Shown: piece after piece, positions 7,860-22,291 of the stretch
Layout of the letters: each line of letters begins with the position of its first letter
Numbering within the stretch: the stretch's first letter is position 1
Made by a program: the position numbers and the translations under genes
Assembly (NCBI GenBank): GCA_020436125.1
Contig: JAGQYK010000004.1
Location: forward strand, 27,815 to 91,814
Source of the DNA: Cyclobacteriaceae bacterium
GTDB taxonomy: Bacteria; Bacteroidota; Bacteroidia; Cytophagales; Cyclobacteriaceae
Reading direction: 5' to 3'
Length of the DNA: 64,000 nucleotides
The notes under the pieces: model-generated
Databases searched by the model: none
What the model was told of the DNA's origin: nothing
Seen by the model: the letters and a program-made list of their open reading frames with translations, nothing else

Positions 7860-9299
7860 TTATTTGATCGACTTGATTAACTGCTGATAAAACCAAATAC
7901 CATCCTGAAAACCCTTTACACTGATACGTTCATCTATTCCATGAAATCCGATGGGATCATTCATTGGGCTGAATTTTATAATCTGGTCAGACACTTTTCC
8001 AAAATGACGAGAGTCAGTAGCTCCTACCATCAGGAACGGAGCCACAATAACTTGATCAAAAGTTTTTCTGGCAGCCGCTTCAACTAATTTAAATCCAAAA
8101 CCATCAACAGGAGTTACCGTAGAGGGATCGTTGCCAAAACTTAGTTTAGATATTTTAACACGCGGATCATCAATCACAGAAACAACACGATCCTTTACAG
8201 ATTCTTGTGTGTCACCTGGCAAAATTCTAAAATTAATTGTCGCCTTGGCCAACGTTGGAATCACGTTATCCTTTACTCCTGCATTAATCACGGTAGGCGC
8301 TATCGTTGTACGCACCATGGCGTTGCCGCCCGGAGTTTGTTCATAAATTCCAACAATTGTGCTTTTGAAAAGCCATTGATTGGCAAATACCATTTTTTGA
8401 AGAAAAGGTTGTTCCGGACCAATGTATTCAATGAAGTCATTGGTGGATTGTGAAAAGTCTGCTTCAAAAGGATTAGCCCGAAGCCTTACAATGGCATTGG
8501 TTAAAATATCAATGGCGGTTTCGGAAGCTGGCATAGAAGAGTGGCCTCCGCTTAACTCCACTGCAAGTTCAAGTGACATATAACCCTTCTCTGAAGTTCC
8601 TACTAAAGCAACAGGTTGAGTTATTCCCGGAATTTTATCCACGGTAATGATTCCGCCTTCATCCAAAACCAAGTCGGCTTTAATGTTTCTTGATTCTAGC
8701 AAGCTGGCTATCGCTATTGCTCCATTCCCTCCTATCTCTTCATCATGGCCAAAAGCCAAATAGATAGTACGCTCAGGAATAAAATTTTCAGACAGCAATT
8801 TTTCAATGGCCTCCATGATAGAAACAAGGCTCATTTTATCATCTGCAGTACCTCTTCCCCAAATGGTATCGTTTTTTACTACTCCTTCAAAAGCATCCAC
8901 CGACCAAAGCGATTCCGTTCCTGGTTCTACAGGAACTACATCCATGTGGGCCATTAACACGATAGGATTAGTGCTGGTGTTTTTGCCTTCCCACTTGTAG
9001 AGCAAGCTGTAGTCCTTCACTTTTTCTCGTTCGAGTTTTTCGTGAACCAACGGGTAGGTCGATTCGAGAAATCGATGGAAGCCATAAAACTGTGCGGTGT
9101 CTAAGGGAATACTATCTCCAAACGAAATCGTTTTAATACGAATCGCGTTTTTGAAATTTTCTAATGTTGCCTTTGAAATTTCTGGGGATGCTTCACCAGC
9201 AATATCCAATTGTTTCGATTGAAACTGGAGAGTGTTGAAAAGAAGGACAACGACCAGTGCGATCAACAAAGTGAATAAAAAAAGAAAAAATTTCTTCAT
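7860..9299 (-). CDS. M20 family metallopeptidase, carboxypeptidase S/PM20D1-like, N-terminally anchored
   Basis: AHMDVVP, WGRGTADDK, GHDEE, EKGY and HGIDERI M20 motifs; N-terminal hydrophobic helix. Confidence 0.9.
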   Translation of the reverse strand: MKKFFLFLFTLLIALVVVLLFNTLQFQSKQLDIAGEASPEISKATLENFKNAIRIKTISFGDSIPLDTAQFYGFHRFLESTYPLVHEKLEREKVKDYSLLYKWEGKNTSTNPIVLMAHMDVVPVEPGTESLWSVDAFEGVVKNDTIWGRGTADDKMSLVSIMEAIEKLLSENFIPERTIYLAFGHDEEIGGNGAIAIASLLESRNIKADLVLDEGGIITVDKIPGITQPVALVGTSEKGYMSLELAVELSGGHSSMPASETAIDILTNAIVRLRANPFEADFSQSTNDFIEYIGPEQPFLQKMVFANQWLFKSTIVGIYEQTPGGNAMVRTTIAPTVINAGVKDNVIPTLAKATINFRILPGDTQESVKDRVVSVIDDPRVKISKLSFGNDPSTVTPVDGFGFKLVEAAARKTFDQVIVAPFLMVGATDSRHFGKVSDQIIKFSPMNDPIGFHGIDERISVKGFQDGIWFYQQLIKSIK

Positions 9300-9302
9300 G
9301 CT

Positions 9303-10637
9303 TTATTTATACTGTTTTCCATGCTTAATCACCATATCCACATCCTGAAGTAAATCGATATGGCGCAACACATCTCCCTTTACTGCAATAATGTCTGCAT
9401 ATTTTCCCGCTGACACTGTTCCATAATCTTTATCCACACCCATAAGTACTGATGGCCAATAACTGGCTGCGCGTAAAGTATAAATCGGGTCCAGCCCAAA
9501 TTCGTTTACCCACACATCCAATTCATTCCACGTGCTTTGGCTGTGAAATTTTAATGGTACTCCGCTATCCGTACCGATCAACAAAACAACTCCGGCATCT
9601 TTCAGTTGTTTCATTTTCCGTTCCAGCGTTGGTTTACGAATTGGATTCAATTGAAAATACGGAAGTTGACCGGGCTGTTGAATCGAACCTTTGATATCTT
9701 GAATAATAGAATCTGGCAAATCTAAATGCCAGGAGTCGTTATCCAATTGCTCAGGATTATCGCGGATGTAGTTGTAATTATAAAGTACCTCCACTGTAGG
9801 TGTCCAAAAGAAAGGACCCAGATTCATTTGGGCAGTGCGCTCTTTGATCATGGCCATAATATCTTCTGGATATTCGGGGGCAGAAGAAAGACCGGTATGT
9901 TCGAAACAGTCGATACCGACTTTCATACCTCTGCGAATTTCTTCAGGTCGATGGGAGTGGCCGACTACTTTCAAATTATTCTTATGAGCTTCATCTACCA
10001 CCGCTTTTACTTCTTCCATAGTCATTTCATCCTGATCAATTAGTTTGATGAAGTCAACTCCCGCCTTAGCCAATTTTTTTATTTTATTCCTCGCATCTGC
10101 CTCGCCATTCACACCCCAACGGAAATCCTCCGTTCCTGGGTAAGGCTTATGCTGAATAAATGGGCCAGACATGTACATTGTTGGTCCGGGGATTTCACCC
10201 TTATTAATTCTATCACGCACATTGATACTCGCTTCAAGTGGAGCTCCTAAATCACGTGCGCTGGTAACTCCTGCCATCAATAATTGATGAGCAGATGACG
10301 GCATGATTACTTTTTCTAAAATCGGTGGTTTGTATGTTTTGTCCCAATGCGTGTAATCACTGTGTCCGTTCAACATTAGGTGGGTGTGCATGTCCCATAG
10401 CCCTGGCATTACACTCATTCCTTCTGTAGAAATTATCTCAGCTCCTTTTGGAATCTCTACCTCTCCTACACGCCCTACTTTTTTTATTCGTTCACCTTCG
10501 ATAATGATAACACTGTTCTGAAGGGGTGTGCTTCCGAATCCATCAATCAATGTGCCTCCTACCAGCGCTTTCACATTGGTTTGTGCCCAGGAAGTATAAC
10601 TCGCCACGAAGCAGAGCAGTACAAAAAGTTTTCTCAT
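9303..10637 (-). CDS. Secreted amidohydrolase family protein (Xaa-Pro dipeptidase-like)
   Basis: PGLWDMHTH (HxH), VGHSH, IGTDSG, GKYADIIAV; signal peptide MRKLFVLLCFVASYTSWAQ. Start moved from TTG 10685 to ATG 10637. Confidence 0.88.
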   Translation of the reverse strand: MRKLFVLLCFVASYTSWAQTNVKALVGGTLIDGFGSTPLQNSVIIIEGERIKKVGRVGEVEIPKGAEIISTEGMSVMPGLWDMHTHLMLNGHSDYTHWDKTYKPPILEKVIMPSSAHQLLMAGVTSARDLGAPLEASINVRDRINKGEIPGPTMYMSGPFIQHKPYPGTEDFRWGVNGEADARNKIKKLAKAGVDFIKLIDQDEMTMEEVKAVVDEAHKNNLKVVGHSHRPEEIRRGMKVGIDCFEHTGLSSAPEYPEDIMAMIKERTAQMNLGPFFWTPTVEVLYNYNYIRDNPEQLDNDSWHLDLPDSIIQDIKGSIQQPGQLPYFQLNPIRKPTLERKMKQLKDAGVVLLIGTDSGVPLKFHSQSTWNELDVWVNEFGLDPIYTLRAASYWPSVLMGVDKDYGTVSAGKYADIIAVKGDVLRHIDLLQDVDMVIKHGKQYK

Positions 10638-10682
10638 TTTCAATTTTTTTAGAATTAGCTCAAAAGGTAAAATAATCGTTCT

Positions 10683-10690
10683 CAAAGTTA
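10683..10690 (-). promoter_or_regulatory. Bacteroidota -7 promoter element TAACTTTG for the amidohydrolase-M20-thioesterase genes
   Basis: Exact match to TAnnTTTG about 45 nt upstream of ATG 10637. Confidence 0.55.
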
Positions 10691-11324: not shown

Positions 11325-13229
11325 TTATTGAACCGGGATATTATCAAAATCTCCCCGTAATTGTCGATACCTTTTTCTTGCTTCGGCTGCATACACACTT
11401 CCTGGAAATCGATTCAAAAATTCGCGATAGATTTCCATAGCAGGATCCTTTTCCTTTTTATAATTCTCCAGGATATCACCCTGTGTAAAGAAGGCATCGT
11501 CCGCTAAAATATCATCTCCATACTCATCAATAATTTTTTGCAACAAGGTATATGCTTTGTCAAATTCTCCGCGCTTTAGCCGAAGTTGTGCCTCAAGCCA
11601 ATAGACATCATCGAGTATAGTGGTGTTAGTAATTTTTGCTGCAGCGCTATCTATTGGTTCCTTTGAAGGAAGTATACCACTTTTTAAACTGGCCATGCGC
11701 ATCAGTGCCGTATCTACTTTATTCTGGTACAGTAACAATTCAATTGCGGCATACTCTTTCAGCGCTGTTCCCACACTATCAAAAGTGGTATTCTCTTTTA
11801 TGCGGATACTTAGGTCCATGGCATCGTTCGCGATTTCTCTGGTCGTAGCTTCCTTAAGTATATCAAGATGCTCTTGTGCCAAGGCAAAATCTCCTTTATA
11901 ATAAGATAGCTTTGCGTTTCGCAATTTGGCCTCATAACCAATAGGTGTTTCGCGCTGAGAACGTTCAACTTGAGAATATAACAGCGTAGATTCCCAGGGC
12001 TCTTCTTTGAGCATGTAAATATCACCCATTTCCAATTTTGCTTTCGCCTTAATATAGGGTGCAACACGAGGGTTTTCTATAAGCACATTCAGCTTACCTA
12101 TGGCAGCATCTTTTTCATCCAACAGGTATCCATAAAGTGAAGCCTGATTTAAAATGGCTTCATATGAATTAGGGTTTTCCGGATAAGTATCGGTGAATGA
12201 CTCATACTCTGCAATGAGGTACCGAACAGAATCCTTTTTTATAGGATAGCTTTTTTTCACTTTGGCCTCACGTGCTTTGATCAGACCCAATCGAGCAGGC
12301 AAGTAATTATCAGTATTGGCATATTCCTTCACTACATACGAAAAGCCTTTATCCGCATTTTCAAAATCTTCATTACTTAATGCGATGTTAGCTATATCCA
12401 GTGTTTTTGAGGATTCCTTTTTGAATCTTTTGTCGTAGGCCCTGGCTTGAACAAATGCTCCGTAAAAATTTTTTTGTTGAAGATTAACCCAAATGAGTAA
12501 ATCGGCATACACTTCGGAGTCAGGATTTCTTTGGACTTTTTCGTAAAGTAATCTTTCCAACGCTTCCATTTCTTCCGGCTTGGTAAGAAGAATCTGTAGA
12601 AGATTTTTTACATAATTAATATTTCCCGGAGTTTGGGTAACGTAGTTGAGATACTCTTCGACCATGGCATCCCGGTTACCCTGCAGCCGGTAGAGGTTAG
12701 CCAATTCGAGGGTGAAAAGCGAATTGTTGGAATGCACATCACGTGCCTCTTGCATAGCCATAACCGCATAATCGGTAAGGCGCTGTGAAGCCAAATAATC
12801 AGAAATTGATTTAATGCGATAGATATCGTTTGCGTTAGCCTTGATAACACTTTTAAATTGTTTTTCAGCTTTTTGAACATCACCACTTTTGATGTAGACC
12901 AGACCAAGATCAAGATGGTAATTAATCCTGTTATCAACCTTGCGAATAAGCTTCTCGACATAATTTTCGGCATCCTTATACTTGCCAAGATCCAACATTA
13001 AATTCAAGAAATCATTGTGTATTAATGGAATGTTGACAAAATCCCGCGCTAAATCCTCGTAAACTTTCAGCGCCTTTTCTTTTTCGCCCTTTGCAGCGTA
13101 TTCGCTTGCAATTTGAATTTCTTGTCTGTTTTGTGCGAAAGCACTGAAGCTGGGTAGTGCACAAAGAACACATACTAATGTTATACTATTAAATATATAT
13201 TTTAAATAACTACTATAAGGGCTGTGCAT
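11325..13229 (-). CDS. Secreted/periplasmic tetratricopeptide-repeat protein
   Basis: 634 aa of repeated helical TPR-like units (e.g. YHLDLGLVYIKSGDVQKAEKQFKSVIK); signal cleavage site AFA-Q. Confidence 0.85.
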   Translation of the reverse strand: MHSPYSSYLKYIFNSITLVCVLCALPSFSAFAQNRQEIQIASEYAAKGEKEKALKVYEDLARDFVNIPLIHNDFLNLMLDLGKYKDAENYVEKLIRKVDNRINYHLDLGLVYIKSGDVQKAEKQFKSVIKANANDIYRIKSISDYLASQRLTDYAVMAMQEARDVHSNNSLFTLELANLYRLQGNRDAMVEEYLNYVTQTPGNINYVKNLLQILLTKPEEMEALERLLYEKVQRNPDSEVYADLLIWVNLQQKNFYGAFVQARAYDKRFKKESSKTLDIANIALSNEDFENADKGFSYVVKEYANTDNYLPARLGLIKAREAKVKKSYPIKKDSVRYLIAEYESFTDTYPENPNSYEAILNQASLYGYLLDEKDAAIGKLNVLIENPRVAPYIKAKAKLEMGDIYMLKEEPWESTLLYSQVERSQRETPIGYEAKLRNAKLSYYKGDFALAQEHLDILKEATTREIANDAMDLSIRIKENTTFDSVGTALKEYAAIELLLYQNKVDTALMRMASLKSGILPSKEPIDSAAAKITNTTILDDVYWLEAQLRLKRGEFDKAYTLLQKIIDEYGDDILADDAFFTQGDILENYKKEKDPAMEIYREFLNRFPGSVYAAEARKRYRQLRGDFDNIPVQ

Positions 13230-13493
13230 TTGTGGATAAGTCTAAGGTCTCAAAGACATGGGTTTAACTTGTGGATAGATATTGTATAGAAAGTGCTGCT
13301 AGTTTATCTAAATACTATGTTAACCTTATTATTCCACAATTTTATAAAATGTGAATCAAGGCTGTCTACAAATTAACGAACTGTGTATAAATATTATTGG
13401 ATCAGAGTTATCAACGAGAAATATCATTTATGAAAGGATTTCTAGTCATTAACTGGTTTGCCCTCCAGTTTGGGTGAGTTTTCCACAATGGTT
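13190..13493. other. Candidate chromosomal replication origin (oriC): DnaA-box cluster with AT-rich flank
   Basis: Exact TTWTNCACA at 13231-13239(-), 13382-13390(-) and 13479-13487(+). One-mismatch boxes at 13270-13278(-), 13330-13338(+) and 13350-13358(-). Degenerate boxes at 13222-13230(-) and 13408-13416(+). About 2.6 kb from mnmG and 4.5 kb from a parS pair. Confidence 0.8.
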
Positions 13494-15206
13494 TTAGAAT
13501 ATCAACAATAGAGGGCCTAGCTCCCAATTGGCTCTAATTGGGAAATCGTATTTTTTGTCTTGTGTTTGGTAGAACCATATTGACTCTGGTTCTTCTCTAT
13601 TATAGAAGTTTCCTGGATCCCATTTTCCATTATTGTTTTTGTCAAGTATTACCTTGATTTTATAGTTTTTCGGTTGAAGATATTGAAATGCATATTTGTT
13701 CAGATTTTTAATCTCTTCCACTATTTCTCCATCTGGCGATGTAAGCTGAATGATAAAGTTGGGCTCATTGGTTTGAACCTCTATTAAAAGTGTGCCTGTA
13801 GCGCCTTTTTTTATTTCAGTAATTGGGAATTTTTGGAATTTCAACGTGTCTGATTCCTGACTAATTATTGACCCTTTATTGAATACTAGTTCTGGTTGGG
13901 TGGTTTGCGGAAGTGTTCGCGGTAATCGGCCTGGCTCTCCCTTCACCCTTTTAGTTATTTGTTCATTGGTAGGTGGCTGTATTTTCTGTTCTCTGAATAA
14001 AGAGTCTTGCGGTATAAGCTTTTTCACTGTTAACCTTTTCTTAATTGTGTCATATAATAAGTCACTTCGGTTGACTGATATAGAATGGAGGGAATCAAGT
14101 CTTACGAATATACTGTCTGTGTTTATAAATAGGATGGGTTTAGAAAATTTGAATTCTTGCGTTAGCGTATTTGTCGTTAGTGAGTATTTAATGTTTTGAG
14201 GGGCTACTGTGAAATCACTTGGAATAGAATTAGCCTTTAGAGGCTTTATAAAAAATGTCGTGTCCATGATAGATCCAATACTGTCGGTTGAGCTGAGAAA
14301 TATTTTTATACTGTCAGTTACTATTTTTGGATTATAGACGGCAATCTCTGTTTGATCGTCTCCGAATGACTTGACCAAAGATTCATTTGTTTCTGCTTTG
14401 ATGGTAAACTGGGTAATACTTTTGTTGAATTTAATTCTAGTTGTTAGGCCTGTATTCCTAATGTTATTTATAGACAGTGGACGCATATCCATACTGATTA
14501 ATGGAATAATTAATGAATCAATAGGTCCAGTTAACTCGAGTTGGTCTTTTAGAAATCCAAATTTCTCTGTTCTACTTTCTACTTTTAGATTTTTATTGTT
14601 GTCTTGAAATGCGTACAAATAATAGTTTCCGCTCTTAATGTTTTCAAGGCTATATGCTCCTCTATCATCCACCAGAGTGAAATAGTTAGGTGAATGCTGA
14701 AAGATGTTAAAAGTATCGGAGGCATAAAGTGCCACTGTTATTTTCTCAGGGACTTTAGTGTTCAGGGCCATCGTTACTTTTCCTTTCACGTTCATGGAGT
14801 CTATTAAGGGACCAGTACTGAATGCAAGCTTTAAATTTTTAGGAGCGTTGTTTTCTGTGATGTCTTTTATCCCTTCTCGAAATGCTATGGAGTAAGTTGT
14901 ATTTTCATCCCATCCTTTTTCTGGTATCAGTGTGACTGTATTTTTCCTGACTTTGTATTCTATTTCTTGATCAGATCTGGGCGAGATAAGTATTTCTTCT
15001 TTAGGATTGTTGAGGTTGATGGCCTCATCAAATAATAGTGTGACTTCTTTTCCTTTAAAGTTCCTTTGTTTGTTGTCTGGAGTTGATTCAATAAGGGTCG
15101 GTGGTGTTTCATCCTTAGGCCCTCCCATTGGTGTTGTTTGGTTGGCGCAGCTCCATAGCAGCAGGATGTACAGAGATAGAATGATACTAGTTGCATTTCT
15201 ATGCAT
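13494..15206 (-). CDS. Ig-like (Big_5-type) domain lipoprotein with C-terminal EF-hand-like DxNxNGxWD motif
   Basis: LLLWSC lipobox, CANQTTPMGGPKDETPP, ILDKNNNGKWDPG. Start at ATG 15206 overlaps the upstream stop codon. Confidence 0.8.
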   Translation of the reverse strand: MHRNATSIILSLYILLLWSCANQTTPMGGPKDETPPTLIESTPDNKQRNFKGKEVTLLFDEAINLNNPKEEILISPRSDQEIEYKVRKNTVTLIPEKGWDENTTYSIAFREGIKDITENNAPKNLKLAFSTGPLIDSMNVKGKVTMALNTKVPEKITVALYASDTFNIFQHSPNYFTLVDDRGAYSLENIKSGNYYLYAFQDNNKNLKVESRTEKFGFLKDQLELTGPIDSLIIPLISMDMRPLSINNIRNTGLTTRIKFNKSITQFTIKAETNESLVKSFGDDQTEIAVYNPKIVTDSIKIFLSSTDSIGSIMDTTFFIKPLKANSIPSDFTVAPQNIKYSLTTNTLTQEFKFSKPILFINTDSIFVRLDSLHSISVNRSDLLYDTIKKRLTVKKLIPQDSLFREQKIQPPTNEQITKRVKGEPGRLPRTLPQTTQPELVFNKGSIISQESDTLKFQKFPITEIKKGATGTLLIEVQTNEPNFIIQLTSPDGEIVEEIKNLNKYAFQYLQPKNYKIKVILDKNNNGKWDPGNFYNREEPESIWFYQTQDKKYDFPIRANWELGPLLLIF

Positions 15207-16095
15207 GACCCGCAATATATATAAGGCTTGAATAATTCATTGTTTTTCTTGCTTTGGCATTCGAACTCAATCCTGTCAGAAGTGCCTTTATAGGAGTAGC
15301 CAAGCTGTGCTTTGAATTGTTCTTGTATTTTTCACTCAATAATGAAACGTAATAAGCATCCAGCTTCATTGGCAATATTTCTTTCAATAGGAGTTGATTA
15401 TTGTCAAAAAGCCTTGTCACATTTTTTTGAGAGAAGTGCCAGAAGTGCCTGGGTACATCATAGGCAGCCCAGTGGGATTGATAGTGTTGTGCGTCATAAG
15501 ATTTATGGTTAGGGACAGCAACAAAAATTAATCCATCTTCCTTTAACTTTTCTTTTAATTGAGCTATCAGCGTGTTGGGATTGGGAACGTGTTCCAGTAC
15601 ATGCCAAAGTGTGATGATGTCAAATTTATTTTCAGGAAGTTCTTCTAGTTTTTCAAATACGGATAAATTTTTGTTTTGTGATTTAATTTTTGCTCTAGCT
15701 TCTTTAGATGGCTCCACTGCAGAACCCTCCCAATTGTTATTGGCCATGTAATTGATAAACTCGCCAGTGCCGCAACCATAATCTAATATAGTGCCTCTCG
15801 TTTTTCTCGAAGTGATAATATCGTGTTTCCAACTGAGGGTATAATTTCTAGCCTTTAAATAGATCCAATCAAATATGGAGTTGCTTTTACCTGTATGAGA
15901 AATGTATTCCTCTGATTTGTAGAACTCACCAATTGATTGTTGGTCTGGCCTTGGACTGGTGAGTAGCAGTTGGCACGACTGACATTGTAGAATGCTGAAT
16001 TGCTGGTGGCTATAGGTGTAGTCCTCACAGTTAAATACATGTTGAAAAGATGTTCCCCTGCAAACCGGACAAAGCTTTACGAGTTCAGTTTGCAT
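15199..16095 (-). CDS. Class I SAM-dependent methyltransferase with N-terminal Zn-ribbon
   Basis: CPVC...CQSC; ILDYGCGTGEF motif I; DIITLWHVLEH. Confidence 0.88.
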   Translation of the reverse strand: MQTELVKLCPVCRGTSFQHVFNCEDYTYSHQQFSILQCQSCQLLLTSPRPDQQSIGEFYKSEEYISHTGKSNSIFDWIYLKARNYTLSWKHDIITSRKTRGTILDYGCGTGEFINYMANNNWEGSAVEPSKEARAKIKSQNKNLSVFEKLEELPENKFDIITLWHVLEHVPNPNTLIAQLKEKLKEDGLIFVAVPNHKSYDAQHYQSHWAAYDVPRHFWHFSQKNVTRLFDNNQLLLKEILPMKLDAYYVSLLSEKYKNNSKHSLATPIKALLTGLSSNAKARKTMNYSSLIYIAGHA

Positions 16096-16098
16096 TGA

Positions 16099-17961
16099 TT
16101 ACTTTCCCATGTAGATTGTGAGTACTGAGATGTCTGCCGGGTTAACGCCACTTATCCTCGAAGCCTGCCCCAGTGTTTCGGGTTTTATTTTTTTAAGTTT
16201 TTCTCTGGATTCTGAAGACAGCGCTTTTACCCTATCATAGTCGAAATCTGGCTTTATTTTGTAATGCTCTAGTCCCTCAATCTTGTGAGCCAATTTTTCT
16301 TCTCGGTCTATATAAGTGATATACTTTACCTGAATTTCTGCTTGTTCCTGCACTTCTGGTTCGAAAGCGGAAACATAGTCGTTGATAGTAGTATGTACTC
16401 TTTTTAATTCCTGCATTCCTATTTCGGGGCGCTTAAGAAAATTTACAACGGGAACTCTTTCTCTAATTGTTGCGGACTTTAGCTCAGTCAGGTTTTCGTT
16501 GACCGCAGTTGGATCTAGCTTAAGCTTTTCAAGTTCTTTGATAAGCTCTTCTACTTTTTCCTTTTTCTTTAACACTTTCTGCAGGCGTTGATCATCTGCC
16601 AATCCAATCTGATGACCTATCTCTGTTAAGCGTAGATCGGCATTGTCCTGTCGAAGCAGAATTCTGTATTCTGCTCTGGAGGTAAACATGCGGTATGGCT
16701 CAATTGTACCTTTGTTCACAAGGTCATCAATCAATACACCGATGTAGGCCTCTGATCTTTTAAGTACAAGGGCCTCCTTTTCATTAATTTTATTATGTGC
16801 GTTTATTCCCGCCATAAGACCCTGACAAGCGGCCTCTTCATACCCTGTTGTGCCGTTGATTTGACCTGCAAAGTACAGATTATCAATTAGTTGCGTCTCT
16901 AACGAGCGCTTCAATTGTGTAGGGGGAAAGTAGTCGTATTCAATAGCATATCCTGGCCTGAACATTTTGGCTTTTTCAAAGCCTGGTATCTTGATAAGTG
17001 CTTGGTATTGAATGTCTTCAGGTAAGGATGTCGAAAACCCATTGACATAAATTTCAACAGTATTCCACCCTTCTGGTTCTACGAAGATTTGGTGTCGGTC
17101 TTTGTCGGCAAACCTATTGATCTTGTCTTCTATCGATGGGCAGTAGCGCGGACCTAGTCCTTGTATCCTTCCCTGGAACATTGGAGACTTGTCAAACCCT
17201 TTTGCTAACTCCTCATGGACCCCCTCGTTGGTGTAGGTGATCCAGCAGCTTACTTGTTTATTTAGAGGCTGGGTTTCCGTGAATGAAAATTTACCCGGAT
17301 GTTCGTCCCCAGGCTGTTCTTCCATTTTTGAATAATCCAGCGATCTCCCATCCACCCTTGGAGGTGTACCAGTTTTCATTCTTCCCGACTCGAATCCTAG
17401 TTGAATCAATTGTTCAGTTAATCCAGTGGCGGCCTTTTCGCCTGTTCTTCCTCCACCAAAGTTTTTCTCTCCTATATGAATCAATCCATTTAGGAATGTG
17501 CCATTAGTAAGTACTACGGCTTTGGCTTTAATTGCTAGGCCCAGGGATGTCTTTACTCCTTTTACTTTCCCATTTTCTACAATTAGACCAGAGACCATTT
17601 CTTGCCAGAAGTCTACATTGGGTGTCCGCTCAAGCATTATTCTCCACTCTTCAGCAAACTTCATTCTATCGTTCTGGGTTCTTGGACTCCACATTGCTGG
17701 TCCTTTTGATCGGTTCAGCATTCTGAATTGGATCATCGATCGATCAGATACAATTCCGGAGTACCCCCCCAAAGCGTCTATTTCCCTAACTATTTGACCT
17801 TTGGCTACTCCTCCCATTGCTGGATTGCAAGACATTTGACCAATCGTGGTCATATTCATAGTCACTAATAATACTTTGGACCCCATGTTGGCTGCTGCTG
17901 CCGCAGCTTCACAGCCAGCATGCCCACCACCCACTACAATAACATCGTACTCTTGAAACAT
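16099..17961 (-). CDS. mnmG: tRNA uridine-5-carboxymethylaminomethyl modification enzyme MnmG (GidA)
   Basis: YDVIVVGGGHAGCEAA, MSCNPAMGG, GPRYCPSIEDK, AGQINGTTGYEEAA. Confidence 0.99.
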   Translation of the reverse strand: MFQEYDVIVVGGGHAGCEAAAAAANMGSKVLLVTMNMTTIGQMSCNPAMGGVAKGQIVREIDALGGYSGIVSDRSMIQFRMLNRSKGPAMWSPRTQNDRMKFAEEWRIMLERTPNVDFWQEMVSGLIVENGKVKGVKTSLGLAIKAKAVVLTNGTFLNGLIHIGEKNFGGGRTGEKAATGLTEQLIQLGFESGRMKTGTPPRVDGRSLDYSKMEEQPGDEHPGKFSFTETQPLNKQVSCWITYTNEGVHEELAKGFDKSPMFQGRIQGLGPRYCPSIEDKINRFADKDRHQIFVEPEGWNTVEIYVNGFSTSLPEDIQYQALIKIPGFEKAKMFRPGYAIEYDYFPPTQLKRSLETQLIDNLYFAGQINGTTGYEEAACQGLMAGINAHNKINEKEALVLKRSEAYIGVLIDDLVNKGTIEPYRMFTSRAEYRILLRQDNADLRLTEIGHQIGLADDQRLQKVLKKKEKVEELIKELEKLKLDPTAVNENLTELKSATIRERVPVVNFLKRPEIGMQELKRVHTTINDYVSAFEPEVQEQAEIQVKYITYIDREEKLAHKIEGLEHYKIKPDFDYDRVKALSSESREKLKKIKPETLGQASRISGVNPADISVLTIYMGK

Positions 17962-17973
17962 ATATTTATTTAA

Positions 17974-17989
17974 CGTTTCACGTGGAACA
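17974..17989. other. parS centromere-like site 1
   Basis: CGTTTCACGTGGAACA versus consensus TGTTTCACGTGAAACA (2 differences). Confidence 0.82.
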
Positions 17990-18018
17990 TGGATTGAGGA
18001 GAAGCCCCTGTTTTCTTA

Positions 18019-18034
18019 TGTTTCACGTGGAACA
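18019..18034. other. parS centromere-like site 2
   Basis: TGTTTCACGTGGAACA versus consensus TGTTTCACGTGAAACA (1 difference). Confidence 0.88.
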
Positions 18035-18039
18035 AGTTT

Positions 18040-18459
18040 TTATTTACGCAAAGATAGGTAAGCTTCTTCTTTTTTGCGCATAAGGGCCTTATCGCTAGAT
18101 TTTTTGTCCTTATAGCCCAATAGATGTAGTACCCCATGGATAATCACGCGGTGAAGCTCTTCGTCAAAAGGAACTTCAAAATGCTTTGCGTTTTCCTCTA
18201 CTCTTTCAACACTAATATAGATTTCCCCTGAGATAGGTGCACCTTTTTCAGAATGGTCAAAAGTGATGATGTCTGTAAGGGTATTATGATTGAGGTATTG
18301 CTGATTAATGGAGAGTAGGTACTGATCAGAGCAGAAGATGTAGTTCAACTCGTTGAGTTGCCCTTTTTCTTTCTTAATGGCTTCTTTGATCCAGGTAATG
18401 GTTTTTCTGGGGTGAGCTAGTTTAAAAGTGGTTTCTTCTGTGAAGAATCGAACCGCCAT
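18040..18459 (-). CDS. ybeY: rRNA maturation endoribonuclease YbeY
   Basis: TDIITF and HRVIIHGVLHLLGYKD (H-x3-H-x5-H-like zinc site). Confidence 0.96.
   Translation of the reverse strand: MAVRFFTEETTFKLAHPRKTITWIKEAIKKEKGQLNELNYIFCSDQYLLSINQQYLNHNTLTDIITFDHSEKGAPISGEIYISVERVEENAKHFEVPFDEELHRVIIHGVLHLLGYKDKKSSDKALMRKKEEAYLSLRK
18049..18056 (-). promoter_or_regulatory. -7 promoter element TATCTTTG for mnmG (inside the ybeY 3' end)
   Basis: Exact TAnnTTTG followed by CG. Confidence 0.6.
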
Positions 18460-18863
18460 TAATTATCAATATAAAAGCTAAGTTCAACCACCTTACCATT
18501 TTCTTTGAAATCAACCTCATCAGATAGGTGTTTCATCAGGAAAATGCCTCTACCCCCAGGCTTTTCAATATTTTCCGGGGCTGTTGGGTCCGGCAGGTTA
18601 TGAAAATCAAAACCATTCCCCTCGTCCTCTACTTTAAACTTGATAAGACCATCCTCTAATGACAAGGCAAGGGTAACATTCTTGCCAGACTCGTTCTTAT
18701 TGCCGTGCTTAATGGCATTGTTCACGGCCTCAGTTACTGCAATCATGATATTGCCATAGATATCATCATTGAGACTGAATTTCTCCTTCGCATTGTCGAT
18801 AAAGCTCTCAATCATCCTTATATTCTCAGAAAGGGACGGGATTTCAATACGAAAGTTGTTCAT
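18459..18863 (-). CDS. ATP-binding protein, RsbW/anti-sigma-factor kinase-like (HATPase_c_2)
   Basis: AVTEAVNNAIKHGN, VEDEGNGF, GGRGIFLM; TAATG overlap with ybeY. Confidence 0.88.
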   Translation of the reverse strand: MNNFRIEIPSLSENIRMIESFIDNAKEKFSLNDDIYGNIMIAVTEAVNNAIKHGNKNESGKNVTLALSLEDGLIKFKVEDEGNGFDFHNLPDPTAPENIEKPGGRGIFLMKHLSDEVDFKENGKVVELSFYIDN

Positions 18864-18904
18864 TTGATAATAGCCAGTTTAAAGTGTAATACCTTTAAGC
18901 GAAC

Positions 18905-21900
18905 TCATTGAAAGTTTTCTATTCGCTTAAAATACTCATTCACCTCCTTCTTGTAATAAGGATACAGTTTAGGGGGTACCGTTTTCAACAATTCTACTTC
19001 TTTTTCCTTTAATCTTAAATATTCTTCAAATGCTTTTGGGAGTTGCTTTTGATATTCTTTAGCTGTCTCCCCTTTGCGCTCTTCATCCATATTTTGCTCT
19101 CTCATCGATTTCTCAGTTTCTAAGAGCCGTGTGAGTATATCCTTTTGCCTTCTGATGGTTTGCTCAGTCAGTCGCTTGTTAACAAGATCCATTTCCGTTT
19201 GTTCCATTTTTCCAGGAATATCACCCCCAGGTGCTTTCCCTCCCTGTTGCTCTAACTTCTCTTGCATCTCCTGTAACGCTCTTCTTATTCTTTCTTGTTC
19301 CGCAGCCATTTTGGCCAGTTCTTCGGAAAGCTGCCTTCCGGACTTACCACTGTTTTTCAATTGCTCTATCTGATCATTAAGCTGCTGCTGTAGTTCTCCC
19401 AGGCTTTCCTTCCCCTTAGCTTTCCCTTTTCCTTTGGAGGGCATGGCGTTGGCCATCATATCCATCATCATGTCAAAGTGATCATTCAGCATAAGTGCAA
19501 GGTTGTTGATACTGGTCATCGATAGTTGCATCTCAGATCCGGCATTGCCTTTTCTTCTCTCTTTAATGTTTTCCACTGCCTTATCTACGTGATCGTTTAG
19601 CTCACCCACCTCTCTGGTGACGATCGATCCCATGAATGGATCGCGCTTGGCGAGAGATAACAGGCTGTCTTCCAGTACTTTAGAGTCATCTTTAATTTTT
19701 AATTGCTGCTGGCTGAGTTTCACATATTTGGGATCTGTTTGCTGAACCTGGACAAAGTCCTTCATAAGCGACTCCTGATCATACGACAATTTAATTAGCC
19801 CATGGAGTATCTGACGCAGCGATTCTAGGTTCTCCATATCAATCTCCATTTGCATCGTATTCTGCATCCCCTCCATTTGTTGCTGCATTTGCTTCATTTT
19901 CTCTGCAGCTTTCTTTTGTTGTTCCGTTGCCTTTTTGGGTTCTCCTTGTTCCAACGATTCTTTACTTTCTTGCTGAGAATTCTTTACGTCACTCATTTCA
20001 TCCTCAGACGGGGTGTCGGCTTGTTTTTTGATCTCTTCGCCTATTTTATTTAGATCTTCTAAGGTTTTTTCGAACTGTTCAAATTCTTTTGACAATTCGT
20101 CCTGTTCCTTGGCTAAACTTTCATTCTCTTTAGGCGAATCGGATGATTCTTCACTTTTATCTCCTTTATTATTCTCCTCACCAGATTTTGAATCTTTATT
20201 GTCGGACTTATCACCTTGGTCGTTTTGTGGCTTCTCTCCAGCTGCTTCCTGCGTTTTCTTTAGTAAGTCTTCTTGTCTTTTAGTCTGATCCTTTATTTCC
20301 TGAATAGCTTGATCCAGTTTGTAGTCGTACTGCATCTGCTTGAATAACTCGAGTGTGCGTTCTAATTCTTTTTCAAGATTGATCTCTTTACGATCCATTT
20401 TGTCCAACTGCTTTTGAATATCATTCACATCAGCATTTTCGCGCATTAATTTTTCCAGTTCCTCAAAGAGCTTTTTGGTTTCATCATCAAGGAGTTCGTC
20501 CATCAATTTTTGTAATTGTTCGGATCTTTCCTTCATTTTCTCATCCATCTCTGAAAGCCCCTCCTTCTTTTCATTCAGCATTTCGTTTTGCTTTTGCAAA
20601 TCATTAATCAACTGATCGAGATTTTGCTTTTGCTTGATGAGGTCCTCCAGCATTTTTTGATCTTGCCATTCCATTGATTTCTTTCCTCTTAACTTTTGCT
20701 GTGCCTCGTCAATGGATTCTTTAAGGTCTTTTGCCTTCTTAAGACTTTCATCAATTTTACTTTCCGTGTTTTGTTGGGATCGACTGATATCCGCTTTCAT
20801 CTCTTGTTCGCTTGGAAGCGCAAACACATATGAAGAAGAGCGAGTAGATTTGCGGCCATTCACTCCATCGTTGTCCCACACTTCAAGATAATAGTTGATC
20901 CGTTCTCCTGGCTGTAGTTGAAGGGAGTCAAGCACCCATTGGTGAAAGAAACTTTGCTTGAGTTGGTTTTTATGAACCGGAATGGAAATGACTTTATTAG
21001 GACCCGCAGCCTCCTTTGTTACTTTTTGGTAGTTCAATGCCAAGGCGCTTATACCATAGTCATCGGAGATGCTACCTCCCAATAATATCGTTTTATAGAG
21101 AATAGAATCACGAAGATGGTCAACGACAATTTGTGGGTGTTGATCCTTAACTACATTAATTGAATAAGAGATCTGATCTTTATTCTTTGAATGATCATTT
21201 TCTAAAGCAATCCAGTAGCCCTCAGAATTGTTAAAGTTCTGATTGTGCCTAAACTGCTGATTATCAACTAATTGCATTTGATTTTCTTCCCCTGAGGATG
21301 TGAAACCAATGGCTGCTTTTGCTGCGTTGGCAGCCCCAATGAGCCAAGTAATGTTTGTTCCTTCGGGAATTTCTAGGTTCCCGGTGTTCAGCAGCACCTC
21401 ACTTTGTTTAGCAAGATATCGGGGGTAAGTAAGCGTCACCTTTAGTTGGGTAAGCTCAGGTCGGTTAATCATGTTGATGGTATATCCATCAGAATAAAAC
21501 CCGGAAGCTTCAAACTGAAAGGGAATTTCGTTTTGAAGTTTTTCGAAAGTGTAGGTGTATGAGGAGTTCGAAAGCGACTCCATTTTAAAACGCTGATTTC
21601 CAGATTGAATATATACTGCTTCAGGTAAGGCTTGTCCTTCGAGGTTTAGGTTCAAAGTAAAATCCTCATTCATGAAGGCATTGAGGTTTTGGTTTTGTAC
21701 TATAAAATTGAAAGGTGCTTTTGGAGAGAATTCCCTGTTGAACTGAACAATGCGCTGTGTGCTTTGTGTAAAAATCCCATTGTTAATAAAGAAGAGCACC
21801 AACATAATCCCGAATGGAATCAAAAGATATTTGAGATACTTCTTATTGGCGCCCAAATCAATGGCACTTTCAAAAGTTACGTTTTCGAATTGTCTCGACT

Positions 21901-22291
21901 TTTGTAGAATACCTGCATCCAGAAGTGCACTCTCGTGTTGAGTTGCCGAGAGTTGAATGACATTAAGCAAACGATCCTTGATGGCGGGAAAATGAGCACC
22001 AATCATTTGTGCACTTTCCTCCTGTCCTAATCCTTTGTGATAAATCCACCAGGAGAGCGGTTCTTTCAGAAATCGGTAAATACAAAACCCGACCAGAACA
22101 AAAAAAGAGAGCAGAATAGTAAATCGTGCCCATCCACTCAGCCAAAGATTGTATTCAATAAGACTTACAATAAGGAAGTAAAGCAGAACAAGTGAGACTG
22201 TAAGAATGGTGCCCTTAATAAAAAGATTGAGGTAGTACCTTTTCTTAAAGGAATTCAACCTGCTGTCGATCACTTTTATACCTTCTCTCAT
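18905..22291 (-). CDS. Large membrane-anchored coiled-coil protein, DUF4175 family
   Basis: N-terminal TM helices, YYLEVWDNDGVNGRKSTRS motif, long E/K/Q-rich coiled coil, C-terminal PYYKKEVNEYF. Confidence 0.82.
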   Translation of the reverse strand: MREGIKVIDSRLNSFKKRYYLNLFIKGTILTVSLVLLYFLIVSLIEYNLWLSGWARFTILLSFFVLVGFCIYRFLKEPLSWWIYHKGLGQEESAQMIGAHFPAIKDRLLNVIQLSATQHESALLDAGILQKSRQFENVTFESAIDLGANKKYLKYLLIPFGIMLVLFFINNGIFTQSTQRIVQFNREFSPKAPFNFIVQNQNLNAFMNEDFTLNLNLEGQALPEAVYIQSGNQRFKMESLSNSSYTYTFEKLQNEIPFQFEASGFYSDGYTINMINRPELTQLKVTLTYPRYLAKQSEVLLNTGNLEIPEGTNITWLIGAANAAKAAIGFTSSGEENQMQLVDNQQFRHNQNFNNSEGYWIALENDHSKNKDQISYSINVVKDQHPQIVVDHLRDSILYKTILLGGSISDDYGISALALNYQKVTKEAAGPNKVISIPVHKNQLKQSFFHQWVLDSLQLQPGERINYYLEVWDNDGVNGRKSTRSSSYVFALPSEQEMKADISRSQQNTESKIDESLKKAKDLKESIDEAQQKLRGKKSMEWQDQKMLEDLIKQKQNLDQLINDLQKQNEMLNEKKEGLSEMDEKMKERSEQLQKLMDELLDDETKKLFEELEKLMRENADVNDIQKQLDKMDRKEINLEKELERTLELFKQMQYDYKLDQAIQEIKDQTKRQEDLLKKTQEAAGEKPQNDQGDKSDNKDSKSGEENNKGDKSEESSDSPKENESLAKEQDELSKEFEQFEKTLEDLNKIGEEIKKQADTPSEDEMSDVKNSQQESKESLEQGEPKKATEQQKKAAEKMKQMQQQMEGMQNTMQMEIDMENLESLRQILHGLIKLSYDQESLMKDFVQVQQTDPKYVKLSQQQLKIKDDSKVLEDSLLSLAKRDPFMGSIVTREVGELNDHVDKAVENIKERRKGNAGSEMQLSMTSINNLALMLNDHFDMMMDMMANAMPSKGKGKAKGKESLGELQQQLNDQIEQLKNSGKSGRQLSEELAKMAAEQERIRRALQEMQEKLEQQGGKAPGGDIPGKMEQTEMDLVNKRLTEQTIRRQKDILTRLLETEKSMREQNMDEERKGETAKEYQKQLPKAFEEYLRLKEKEVELLKTVPPKLYPYYKKEVNEYFKRIENFQ

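Follow-up and report, generated by a model that had tools for sequence, protein, structure and literature searches.

A probable replication origin with a BUS-like module overlapping the start of a TPR-protein gene in a Cyclobacteriaceae bacterium

In Bacillus subtilis the basal unwinding system (BUS) of the origin is found in incC and comprises DnaA boxes 6 and 7, a GGCC spacer, six DnaA-trios and an AT-rich 27-mer. Written as top strand from a published table that gives the bound strand 3' to 5' (Pelliciari 2021; PMC8287927), it reads TTATCCACA AATCCACA GGCC CTACTATTACTTCTACTA TTTTTTATA, with a spacer of 12 nt. The layout is the same in Staphylococcus aureus and Listeria monocytogenes, and a BUS was predicted for 85% of the origins in DoriC and put to the test in S. 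aureus, L. monocytogenes, Enterococcus faecalis and Helicobacter pylori, as well as in Synechococcus elongatus and Deinococcus radiodurans (PMC8287927). Here we describe a 64,000-nt stretch of a Cyclobacteriaceae genome (contig JAGQYK010000004.1, positions 27,815 to 91,814; hereafter the window), in which a BUS-like module overlaps the 5' end of a gene encoding a tetratricopeptide repeat (TPR) protein. We consider it likely that the locus is oriC, made up of the spacer at 13230–13493 ahead of this gene and the first ~55–65 bp of the gene itself, the latter belonging to a dual-coded unwinding half.

On the minus strand, positions 13240..13185 read cTTATCCACA AATGCACAG CCC TTATAGTAGTTATTTAAAATATATATTTAATAG, letter by letter as in the original prediction, which had also given the B. 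subtilis incC string correctly when compared with the table cited above. The layout of the module can be written as TTATCCACA AATGCACA GCCC TTA TAG TAG TTA TTT, followed by the AT tract (Table 1). A degenerate box in tandem with the perfect one had been proposed and is present, although its 9-mer is not AATGCACAG and is better read as AAATGCACA, which has three mismatches, sits at the offset of B. subtilis box 7 and has one A in common with box 1. The window is identical to the B. subtilis BUS at 19 of the 21 first bases and shares with it the box orientation, a tandem offset of 8 nt, a GC spacer of 4 nt, a distance of 12 nt from box to triplets and the AT tract that comes next; the orientation, the 8-nt offset and the 12-nt box-to-triplet spacing are also those of the S. 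aureus BUS (PMC8287927). Published BUS searches allow up to two mismatches in the box and up to four in the tandem box, and look for a spacer of at most 16 nt (mode 10–13), usually with a GC-rich cluster, and at least three NAN trios (N, any base). The corresponding features of the window are zero and three mismatches, five NAN triplets at a spacer of 11 (the spacer being 11 or 12 nt, with GCCC as its GC-rich cluster), and an AT-rich region distal to the triplets. Unlike the B. subtilis module, which is intergenic (dnaA–dnaN), the module described here overlaps a start codon and about 18 codons. The ATG of the TPR open reading frame (ORF) occupies 13229–13227 within box 2, an in-frame TAG lies four codons 5' of it, and no alternative in-frame ATG, GTG or TTG was found in the window ahead of the mature protein, in agreement with the earlier statement that this codon, inside the second box, is the only candidate start. 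The triplet repeats then code for P-Y-S-S-Y. The central claim of the original prediction, a BUS-like unwinding module at an origin, lying over the start codon and the signal-peptide codons, is supported by the B. subtilis parallel together with the family conservation, the AT tract inside the ORF, the synonymous constraint and the skew switch described below.

Table 1. Features of the probable origin locus, with positions in the window.
Feature	Position	Strand	Remarks
TPR-repeat protein gene	11325..13229	minus	634 aa; CpoB/YbgF-like C-terminal TPR; ORF and family matches
TPR codons 1–32 MHSPYSSYLKYIFNSITLVCVLCALPSFSAFA	13134..13229	minus	followed by invariant Q33; signal peptidase I (SPase I) site A-F-A/Q by inspection
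AT-rich tract, candidate DNA unwinding element (DUE)	13176..13218	minus	codons 4–18, signal-peptide n-region; pure A/T run 13187–13209 (23 nt)
Trio-like triplet repeats	13204..13219	minus	TTA TAG TAG TTA TTT (12-nt B. subtilis register) or CTT ATA GTA GTT ATT (11-nt register of the original prediction)
GC-rich spacer GCCC	13219..13222	minus	between box 2 and triplets; B. subtilis counterpart GGCC
Box 2 AAATGCACA	13223..13231	minus	tandem to box 1 at 8-nt offset; 3 mismatches to consensus; holds ATG and codon 2
Box 1, perfect DnaA box TTATCCACA	13231..13239	minus	ends 1 nt ahead of ATG; positions 1–9 of the family position weight matrix; ACA 64/64
Intergenic spacer, 264 bp	13230..13493	minus	between Big_5/DUF2141 gene and TPR gene; DnaA-box cluster (DnaA-assembly region) of putative oriC
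DnaA box CTATCCACA	13270..13278	minus	1 mismatch; conserved slot -39/-40
DnaA-box-like TATTCCACA	13330..13338	plus	2 mismatches; reverse; slot -99, also seen in relatives
DnaA-box-like TGATTCACA	13350..13358	minus	2 mismatches; slot -119/-120; relatives have 0–1 mismatch boxes there
DnaA box TTATACACA	13382..13390	minus	1 mismatch; conserved slot -151
DnaA box TTTTCCACA	13479..13487	plus	1 mismatch; opposite orientation; conserved slot -248; directly after the upstream gene's stop codon

Related loci were collected in a protein-anchored scan with one genome per species, which yielded 80 loci at 59–94% protein identity, one of them a complete 4.42-Mb chromosome. The same DNA module stands just ahead of or over the TPR gene start in nearly all 80. 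The anchored comparison covered 72 loci, 64 after dereplication, and the position table was built from these 64, to which the counts below refer unless another denominator is given. Box 1, box 2, the GC spacer, a periodic element (Y-N-A)n (Y, pyrimidine) and the AT tract are kept in register throughout. Both boxes are almost invariant, with the two ACA cores present in 64/64 (that of box 2 at module positions 15–17) and box 1 found at no more than one mismatch in 55/64 relatives. Positions 18–21 are GC-rich across the family; the 3-nt periodic element begins at position 22 and runs for 4–5 units, with Y in 64/64 at positions 22, 25 and 28 and A in 63/64 at positions 24 and 33, after which the sequence is AT-rich to about position 64. 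By comparison, the bases at -15..-2 are not conserved, so that the conservation of the module represents phylogenetic footprinting and not general similarity. A search with the family consensus gives a single match in the window, compared with 0 in 100 shuffles.

The position of the start codon within the module is also largely preserved. The TPR frame relative to the boxes is constant in 63/65 loci, and the ATG stands at module position 11, inside box 2, in the window and in 51/64 relatives. It is found 6 nt later, at position 17, in 8/64 and at position 24 in two frame-shifted loci, and is absent or elsewhere in 3/64, for which TTG, GTG or a far-upstream ATG are available as alternatives. 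The two frame-shifted loci (L063 and L076, locus positions ~7960–8060) have a 1-nt frame change yet keep the box pair and the AT tract, and their N-terminal peptides differ (MIIILYF.. and MTLRLFYLKR..). The protein names of the homologues, which are of the type of 'Cyclobacteriaceae', Ohtaekwangia and Fulvivirgaceae metagenome-assembled genomes (MAGs), and the activated-sludge and wastewater runs in which the sequence is present assign the organism to the Cytophagales; a second homologue search, based on locus L072, returned only Chryseosolibacter/Fulvivirgaceae MAGs and one draft isolate.

The sole conserved, strongly AT-rich tract within -420..+200 is located at +21..+60 (85–93% AT, mean of 62 genomes), directly distal to the tandem boxes and wholly inside the TPR ORF. 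As far as sequence evidence goes, this places unwinding on the gene side of the box cluster, as originally proposed, and not on the other side. The coding sequence here bears the mark of a constraint at the DNA level. The excess synonymous-site conservation that had been suggested as a check on the early codons was found. Codon 2 (CAC, AAC or GAC) has C at the wobble position in 62/62 genes against a background of 0.46, and codon 3 starts with A in 62/62 across seven different amino acids. Where codon 4 is four-fold degenerate it ends in T in 44/44 cases (9.7 expected), and four-fold codons at position 7 end in Y in 12/12 (6.1 expected). Codons 5–8 are almost all NAY (Tyr > Asn > Asp > His), the codon form being conserved and not the residue. 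For codons 9–18, G or C at the third position (GC3) was counted 18 times in 620 codons of 62 genes versus 270 expected (z = -20.7), compared with 780 versus 806 expected for a control of 30 downstream codons of the same gene. In 540 other genes of the same loci the observed-to-expected ratio at codons 9–18 was 0.98, and GC3 was zero in 48/62 TPR genes versus 0/540 other genes; a general AT bias at 5' ends is therefore not the explanation. The AT tract covers codons 4–18 under this DNA-level constraint, consistent with the earlier proposal that the unwinding region would also encode the signal peptide. Such an overlap is plausible because the n-region is cleaved and tolerant of sequence change. 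Most likely, the same bases would serve replication and coding over the ~20 first TPR codons, in an overlap conserved across a Cytophagales group.

The spacer upstream of the gene harbours a cluster of DnaA boxes with six conserved slots in 264 bp, as is typical of an oriC. Relative to box 1, these slots are fixed at -248 (reverse), -151/-160, -120, -99 (reverse), -39/-40 and 0, and all six are occupied in the window; the reverse box is found at -236..-252 in most related loci. Over the 64 genomes, boxes with at most one mismatch are concentrated only from -300 to +10 of box 1. Within ±8 kb, their number per locus and 250 nt comes to 2.39 and 1.31 at the spacer versus ~0.06 elsewhere, an enrichment of ~40-fold over background that peaks only at -250..+250. 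In the window itself four such boxes fall inside 257 bp, compared with ~20 matches expected over the full 64 kb.

DnaA-box-like sequences also occur within neighbouring coding sequence. Three such 9-mers lie in 180 bp on the plus strand at 9334–9514, in the 3' part of an amidohydrolase gene (ATATCCACA, a perfect TTATCCACA at 9430 and TTACCCACA). Since relatives have only a small density bump at the matching distance, this group is probably a product of chance or a minor DnaA-binding cluster. In many relatives a P-L-I-H-N motif of the TPR protein is encoded by a forward box TTATCCACAA at +200..+224 from box 1, the counterpart in the window being TAATACACA at 13016–13024 (minus strand, two mismatches). 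We discarded this in-gene box as a distal box of the origin, its synonymous usage being near background (Ile ATC 22, ATA 21, ATT 17; His CAC 44, CAT 16), which indicates that it is mostly a by-product of the conserved protein motif. A reverse box recurs at +273..+285 in relatives.

Strand composition changes at the spacer. The flanking genes on both sides share one strand, so that coding-strand bias cancels in the comparison. GC skew at four-fold sites passes from about -0.2..-0.3 upstream to ~0 downstream, with the step exactly between the two flanking genes, and the upstream value is below the downstream value in 57/59 loci (means -0.207 versus +0.004; Wilcoxon p = 3.6e-11). With the break set at the spacer of the window, plus-strand genes shift from -0.213 to +0.095 (p = 1.4e-6) and minus-strand genes from +0.013 to +0.200 (p = 0.0025), and the right-hand sign holds for 50 kb in both gene orientations. 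The polarity of the step is that of an origin, with G-rich strands diverging, and this local four-fold-site skew provides the leading/lagging compositional switch expected at an oriC; the window's raw GC skew carries no such information, gene effects being dominant in it. Taken together, the box cluster in the spacer and the skew step make it very probable that the locus is oriC.

A number of observations nonetheless speak against an origin at this position. The upstream genes in the skew test are the same orthologues in nearly all loci, and the bins at -7/-8 kb return to ~0, so that gene-specific codon bias contributes to the step. A change-point fit on the window only favours a switch (log-likelihood difference 15–18), but its location is broad, at 8–30 kb. 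Lastly, all six conserved upstream genes point toward the origin and would hence be transcribed head-on to the fork. The DUF4175 gene (18905–22291), which corresponds to the bins at -7/-8 kb, has a four-fold skew of ~0 versus ~-0.2 in its neighbours in locus orientation, a gene-specific deviation. No dnaA gene was found among the 25 of ~47 ORFs of at least 120 aa that were scanned (18 against Pfam, 8 also against NCBIfam), nor by eye in 7860..9299 and 9303..10685; an oriC remote from dnaA is common in Bacteroidetes (PMC4755523).

The identity of the periodic element is where this reading is weakest. In B. subtilis the central adenine of a trio on the bound strand, the position that defines the trio and is critical to its function, contacts Asn187, and initiation is impaired by T or G at this position while C is tolerated (PMC10721633). 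The original prediction had described triplets with a constant central T on the minus strand. This is correct for the window, where five triplets follow the pattern in the 11-nt register, and for its clade, but it does not extend to the family, in which the outer positions of Y-N-A are conserved instead; the B. subtilis trios, by contrast, have an invariant central A on the bound strand. The window has five consecutive NTN triplets at a spacer of 11 and only one trio at the B. subtilis spacer of 12. Across the family, the outer positions in the 12-nt register fit 3'-R-N-T-5' (R, purine) at 90–100%, whereas in the 11-nt register only A (or G), and neither T nor C, occurs at the centre, and the first position does not fit. 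Measured against the trio consensus, 3'-[G/A]-A-[T/A]-5', whose central adenine is conserved, the family as a whole does not conform in this sequence comparison. Three counts are unfavourable to a trio array: the central base in the 12-nt register is ~50:50 T/A in the family, with bound-strand A in 38–75% of genomes; the permissive published pattern of at least three NAN within 16 nt of the box is present, in any register, in only 41/64 loci; and a strict run of at least three trios in the canonical register in 7/64. At least three trios from the first triplet at spacer 12 are found in 9/64, and some relatives have perfect arrays (TTA CTA TTA CTA TTA in L019 and five TTA in L029). As the centre is not conserved, we describe the module as BUS-like and its triplets as trio-like, in an 11- or a 12-nt register. 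That the element acts as DnaA-trios in the B. subtilis sense is close to an even question, if anything leaning to the negative, and a lineage-specific code in single-stranded DNA (ssDNA) is a live possibility.

The module sequence, its conservation, the strand-skew switch and the DNA-level synonymous constraint are observations, and the mechanism that we propose to join them is as follows. DnaA would bind the six conserved box slots in the spacer. The last two boxes are arranged head to tail and match the B. subtilis BUS in sequence and spacing, and a DnaA oligomer starting from them would extend over the GC spacer onto the 3-nt-periodic element and open the adjacent AT tract. The unwinding half would lie inside the TPR ORF, with box 2 carrying the ATG; the periodic element, read as NAY codons, would produce the unusual N-terminus MHxP(Y/N)n, rich in Tyr and Asn, while the AT tract would encode the rest of an unusually long n-region that is presumably cleaved and sequence-tolerant. 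That DnaA binds here, where and in which direction the DNA unwinds, and that the box-2 ATG is used are predictions of this scheme. A more far-reaching version joins all its parts into a codon-built unwinding element: DnaA would read a Y-N-A code whose critical positions are unlike the B. subtilis 3'-GAT-5', firing and TPR expression would be mechanically coupled (through mnmG-side transcription across the DUE, or DnaA occupancy gating the TPR 5' end), and the Tyr/Asn n-region would be the protein-level shadow of origin function. We regard this joint reading as unlikely in its entirety. The original prediction also raised the idea that DnaA at the start codon could link expression of the TPR protein with initiation, which is speculation.

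Other explanations can be offered for the same data. The locus could be an origin whose periodic element is no trio array, but a plain DUE opened by torsional stress or another factor, its periodicity either arising secondarily from NAY codons or representing an ssDNA code that is specific to Bacteroidota and unlike 3'-GAT-5'. The lack of conservation at the central base, the impaired initiation in B. subtilis when the central A is changed to T or G (PMC10721633) and the almost exclusive use of NAY at codons 5–8 are in its favour. On the other hand, it leaves aside the fit of the outer positions to 3'-R-N-T-5', which includes the coding-free four-fold wobbles of codons 4 and 7, as well as a spacing equal to that of B. 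subtilis and the perfect arrays of L019 and L029; we hold this explanation to be possible, if tentative. A mere chance resemblance to a BUS has a negligible probability and is rejected: while a perfect 9-mer is expected about once per 64 kb, and a second one does exist at 9430, chance would have to account for the clustering of boxes, the conservation in 64 genomes and the absence of matches in the shuffled sequences.

It is also conceivable that the locus is not an origin and that oriC lies elsewhere, the boxes belonging to a DnaA-controlled promoter or operator of the TPR gene or to a titration or reactivation locus like datA, DARS or DBC. The boxes do overlap the 5' end of a gene, as they do at DnaA-regulated genes, and the genes on one side are head-on. 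However, at datA, DARS, B. subtilis DBC or an operator one would expect clustered boxes with neither an unwinding module nor a skew switch nearby, whereas here the four-fold skew switches at the spacer in both gene orientations with origin polarity, and a BUS-type pair with a GC spacer and a maintained AT tract is foreign to operators and titration sites. In addition, a conserved Bacteroidetes -7 promoter motif (TAnnTTTG) was not found in the spacer. These findings make a role other than origin improbable. Further removed still is the explanation that the pattern inside the ORF was selected at the level of protein or translation, for a Tyr/Asn-rich n-region or an unstructured AT-rich 5' mRNA, with only the upstream boxes acting as DNA elements. 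Although the N-terminal peptides look conserved (MHxPYY..) and an AT bias in 5' coding regions can serve translation initiation, the residues vary (Y, N, D, H, S, T, R, K) where wobble and four-fold sites are fixed, 5' GC3 depletion is absent from the other genes, the frame-shifted relatives retain the DNA and change the peptide, and box 1, which lies outside the ORF, is equally conserved. The synonymous-site tests largely refute this explanation, to which we assign a very low probability.

Searches of PDB and of protein families with the TPR protein gave only generic TPR and CpoB-like matches. By inspection its N terminus has the features of a Sec/SPase I signal peptide, with K10 in the predicted n-region, the h-region ITLVCVLCALP and the A-F-A/Q site. 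Gln33 is invariant in 27 homologues, directly after A-x-A, in accordance with the Q-rule for SPase I substrates described in Bacteroidetes (PMC5837995). At 32 aa the signal peptide is unusually long because its n-region is extended. Upstream of the spacer, at 13494–22291, genes for Big_5/DUF2141, a methyltransferase, MnmG/GidA, YbeY, a HATPase anti-sigma-like protein and DUF4175 are all on the same strand, and the order DUF4175, HATPase anti-sigma-like, YbeY, MnmG, methyltransferase, Big_5, origin locus, TPR is kept in 64–74 of 75 loci; mnmG/gidA lies 2.9 kb from the origin locus in conserved synteny. Gene content on the other side is variable among the loci (L001–L080). ORF overlaps of 17 nt between Big_5 and methyltransferase (15199–15215) and of 37 nt between an M20 peptidase and a 147-aa ORF (7860–7896) would fit either an operon or TTG starts that were over-extended when the ORF list was made mechanically. 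No terminator was found after the upstream gene on the coding strand, and no Rfam family matched at the locus. Contigs from a wastewater metatranscriptome cover 13084–13325 and 13326–13635 at a depth of 2–5, and so reach from the TPR 5' end over the entire spacer into the 3' part of the gene upstream. Read-through across the putative origin from the mnmG-side genes would fit these contigs, but their coverage is too thin, and possibly affected by DNA carry-over, to place a transcription start.

The E. coli oriC lies between gidA (mnmG) and mioC, and the Caulobacter Cori overlaps the hemE promoter. Like these origins, the present locus stands beside mnmG-linked genes within a transcribed neighbourhood, where transcription through the origin is plausible; there it is promoters or transcripts that overlap the origin, whereas here it is protein-coding sequence. 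Origins inside genes are familiar from mobile replicons, the phage lambda ori lying inside gene O and plasmid origins inside rep genes. Phage P1 oriL is likewise inside repL (PMC9948254). The locus resembles these cases in that origin DNA also codes for protein and synonymous changes matter. The genes in those cases, however, belong to mobile replicons and encode initiators that work in cis on their own origin, in contrast to a chromosomal, DnaA-dependent origin within an unrelated envelope-protein gene, as the present locus would be. In our literature searches we came across no report, for Bacteroidota or any other group, of a chromosomal oriC whose unwinding element lies within coding sequence. 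Scoring in Ori-Finder and DoriC is restricted to intergenic sequence (PMC10225481), and the BUS survey likewise made its predictions on intergenic sequence, in which a BUS entering a coding sequence would be truncated; its Cytophagales rows (C. marinum, M. tractuosa and C. hutchinsonii) list different, weak strings compared with this module (PMC8287927). According to the passage of PMC3531139 that cites Xu et al. 2012, the oriC of Cytophaga hutchinsonii, also a member of the Cytophagales, was validated by oriC plasmids and, like the present locus, is not next to dnaA.

Origins of bacterial chromosomes are regarded as intergenic. The locus described here appears to be an origin that is dual-coded by nature and conserved, which would explain why BUS calls in this clade may be wrong or cut short. 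The ~60 natural variants provide material for asking which triplet positions are needed by Bacteroidota DnaA, and the fragment from about -300 to +110 would be a concrete basis for oriC plasmids in the poorly tractable Cytophagales. For this family, the locus suggests that an unwinding element can sit in coding sequence and leave its mark on the protein, in the form of a poly-Tyr/Asn N-terminus.

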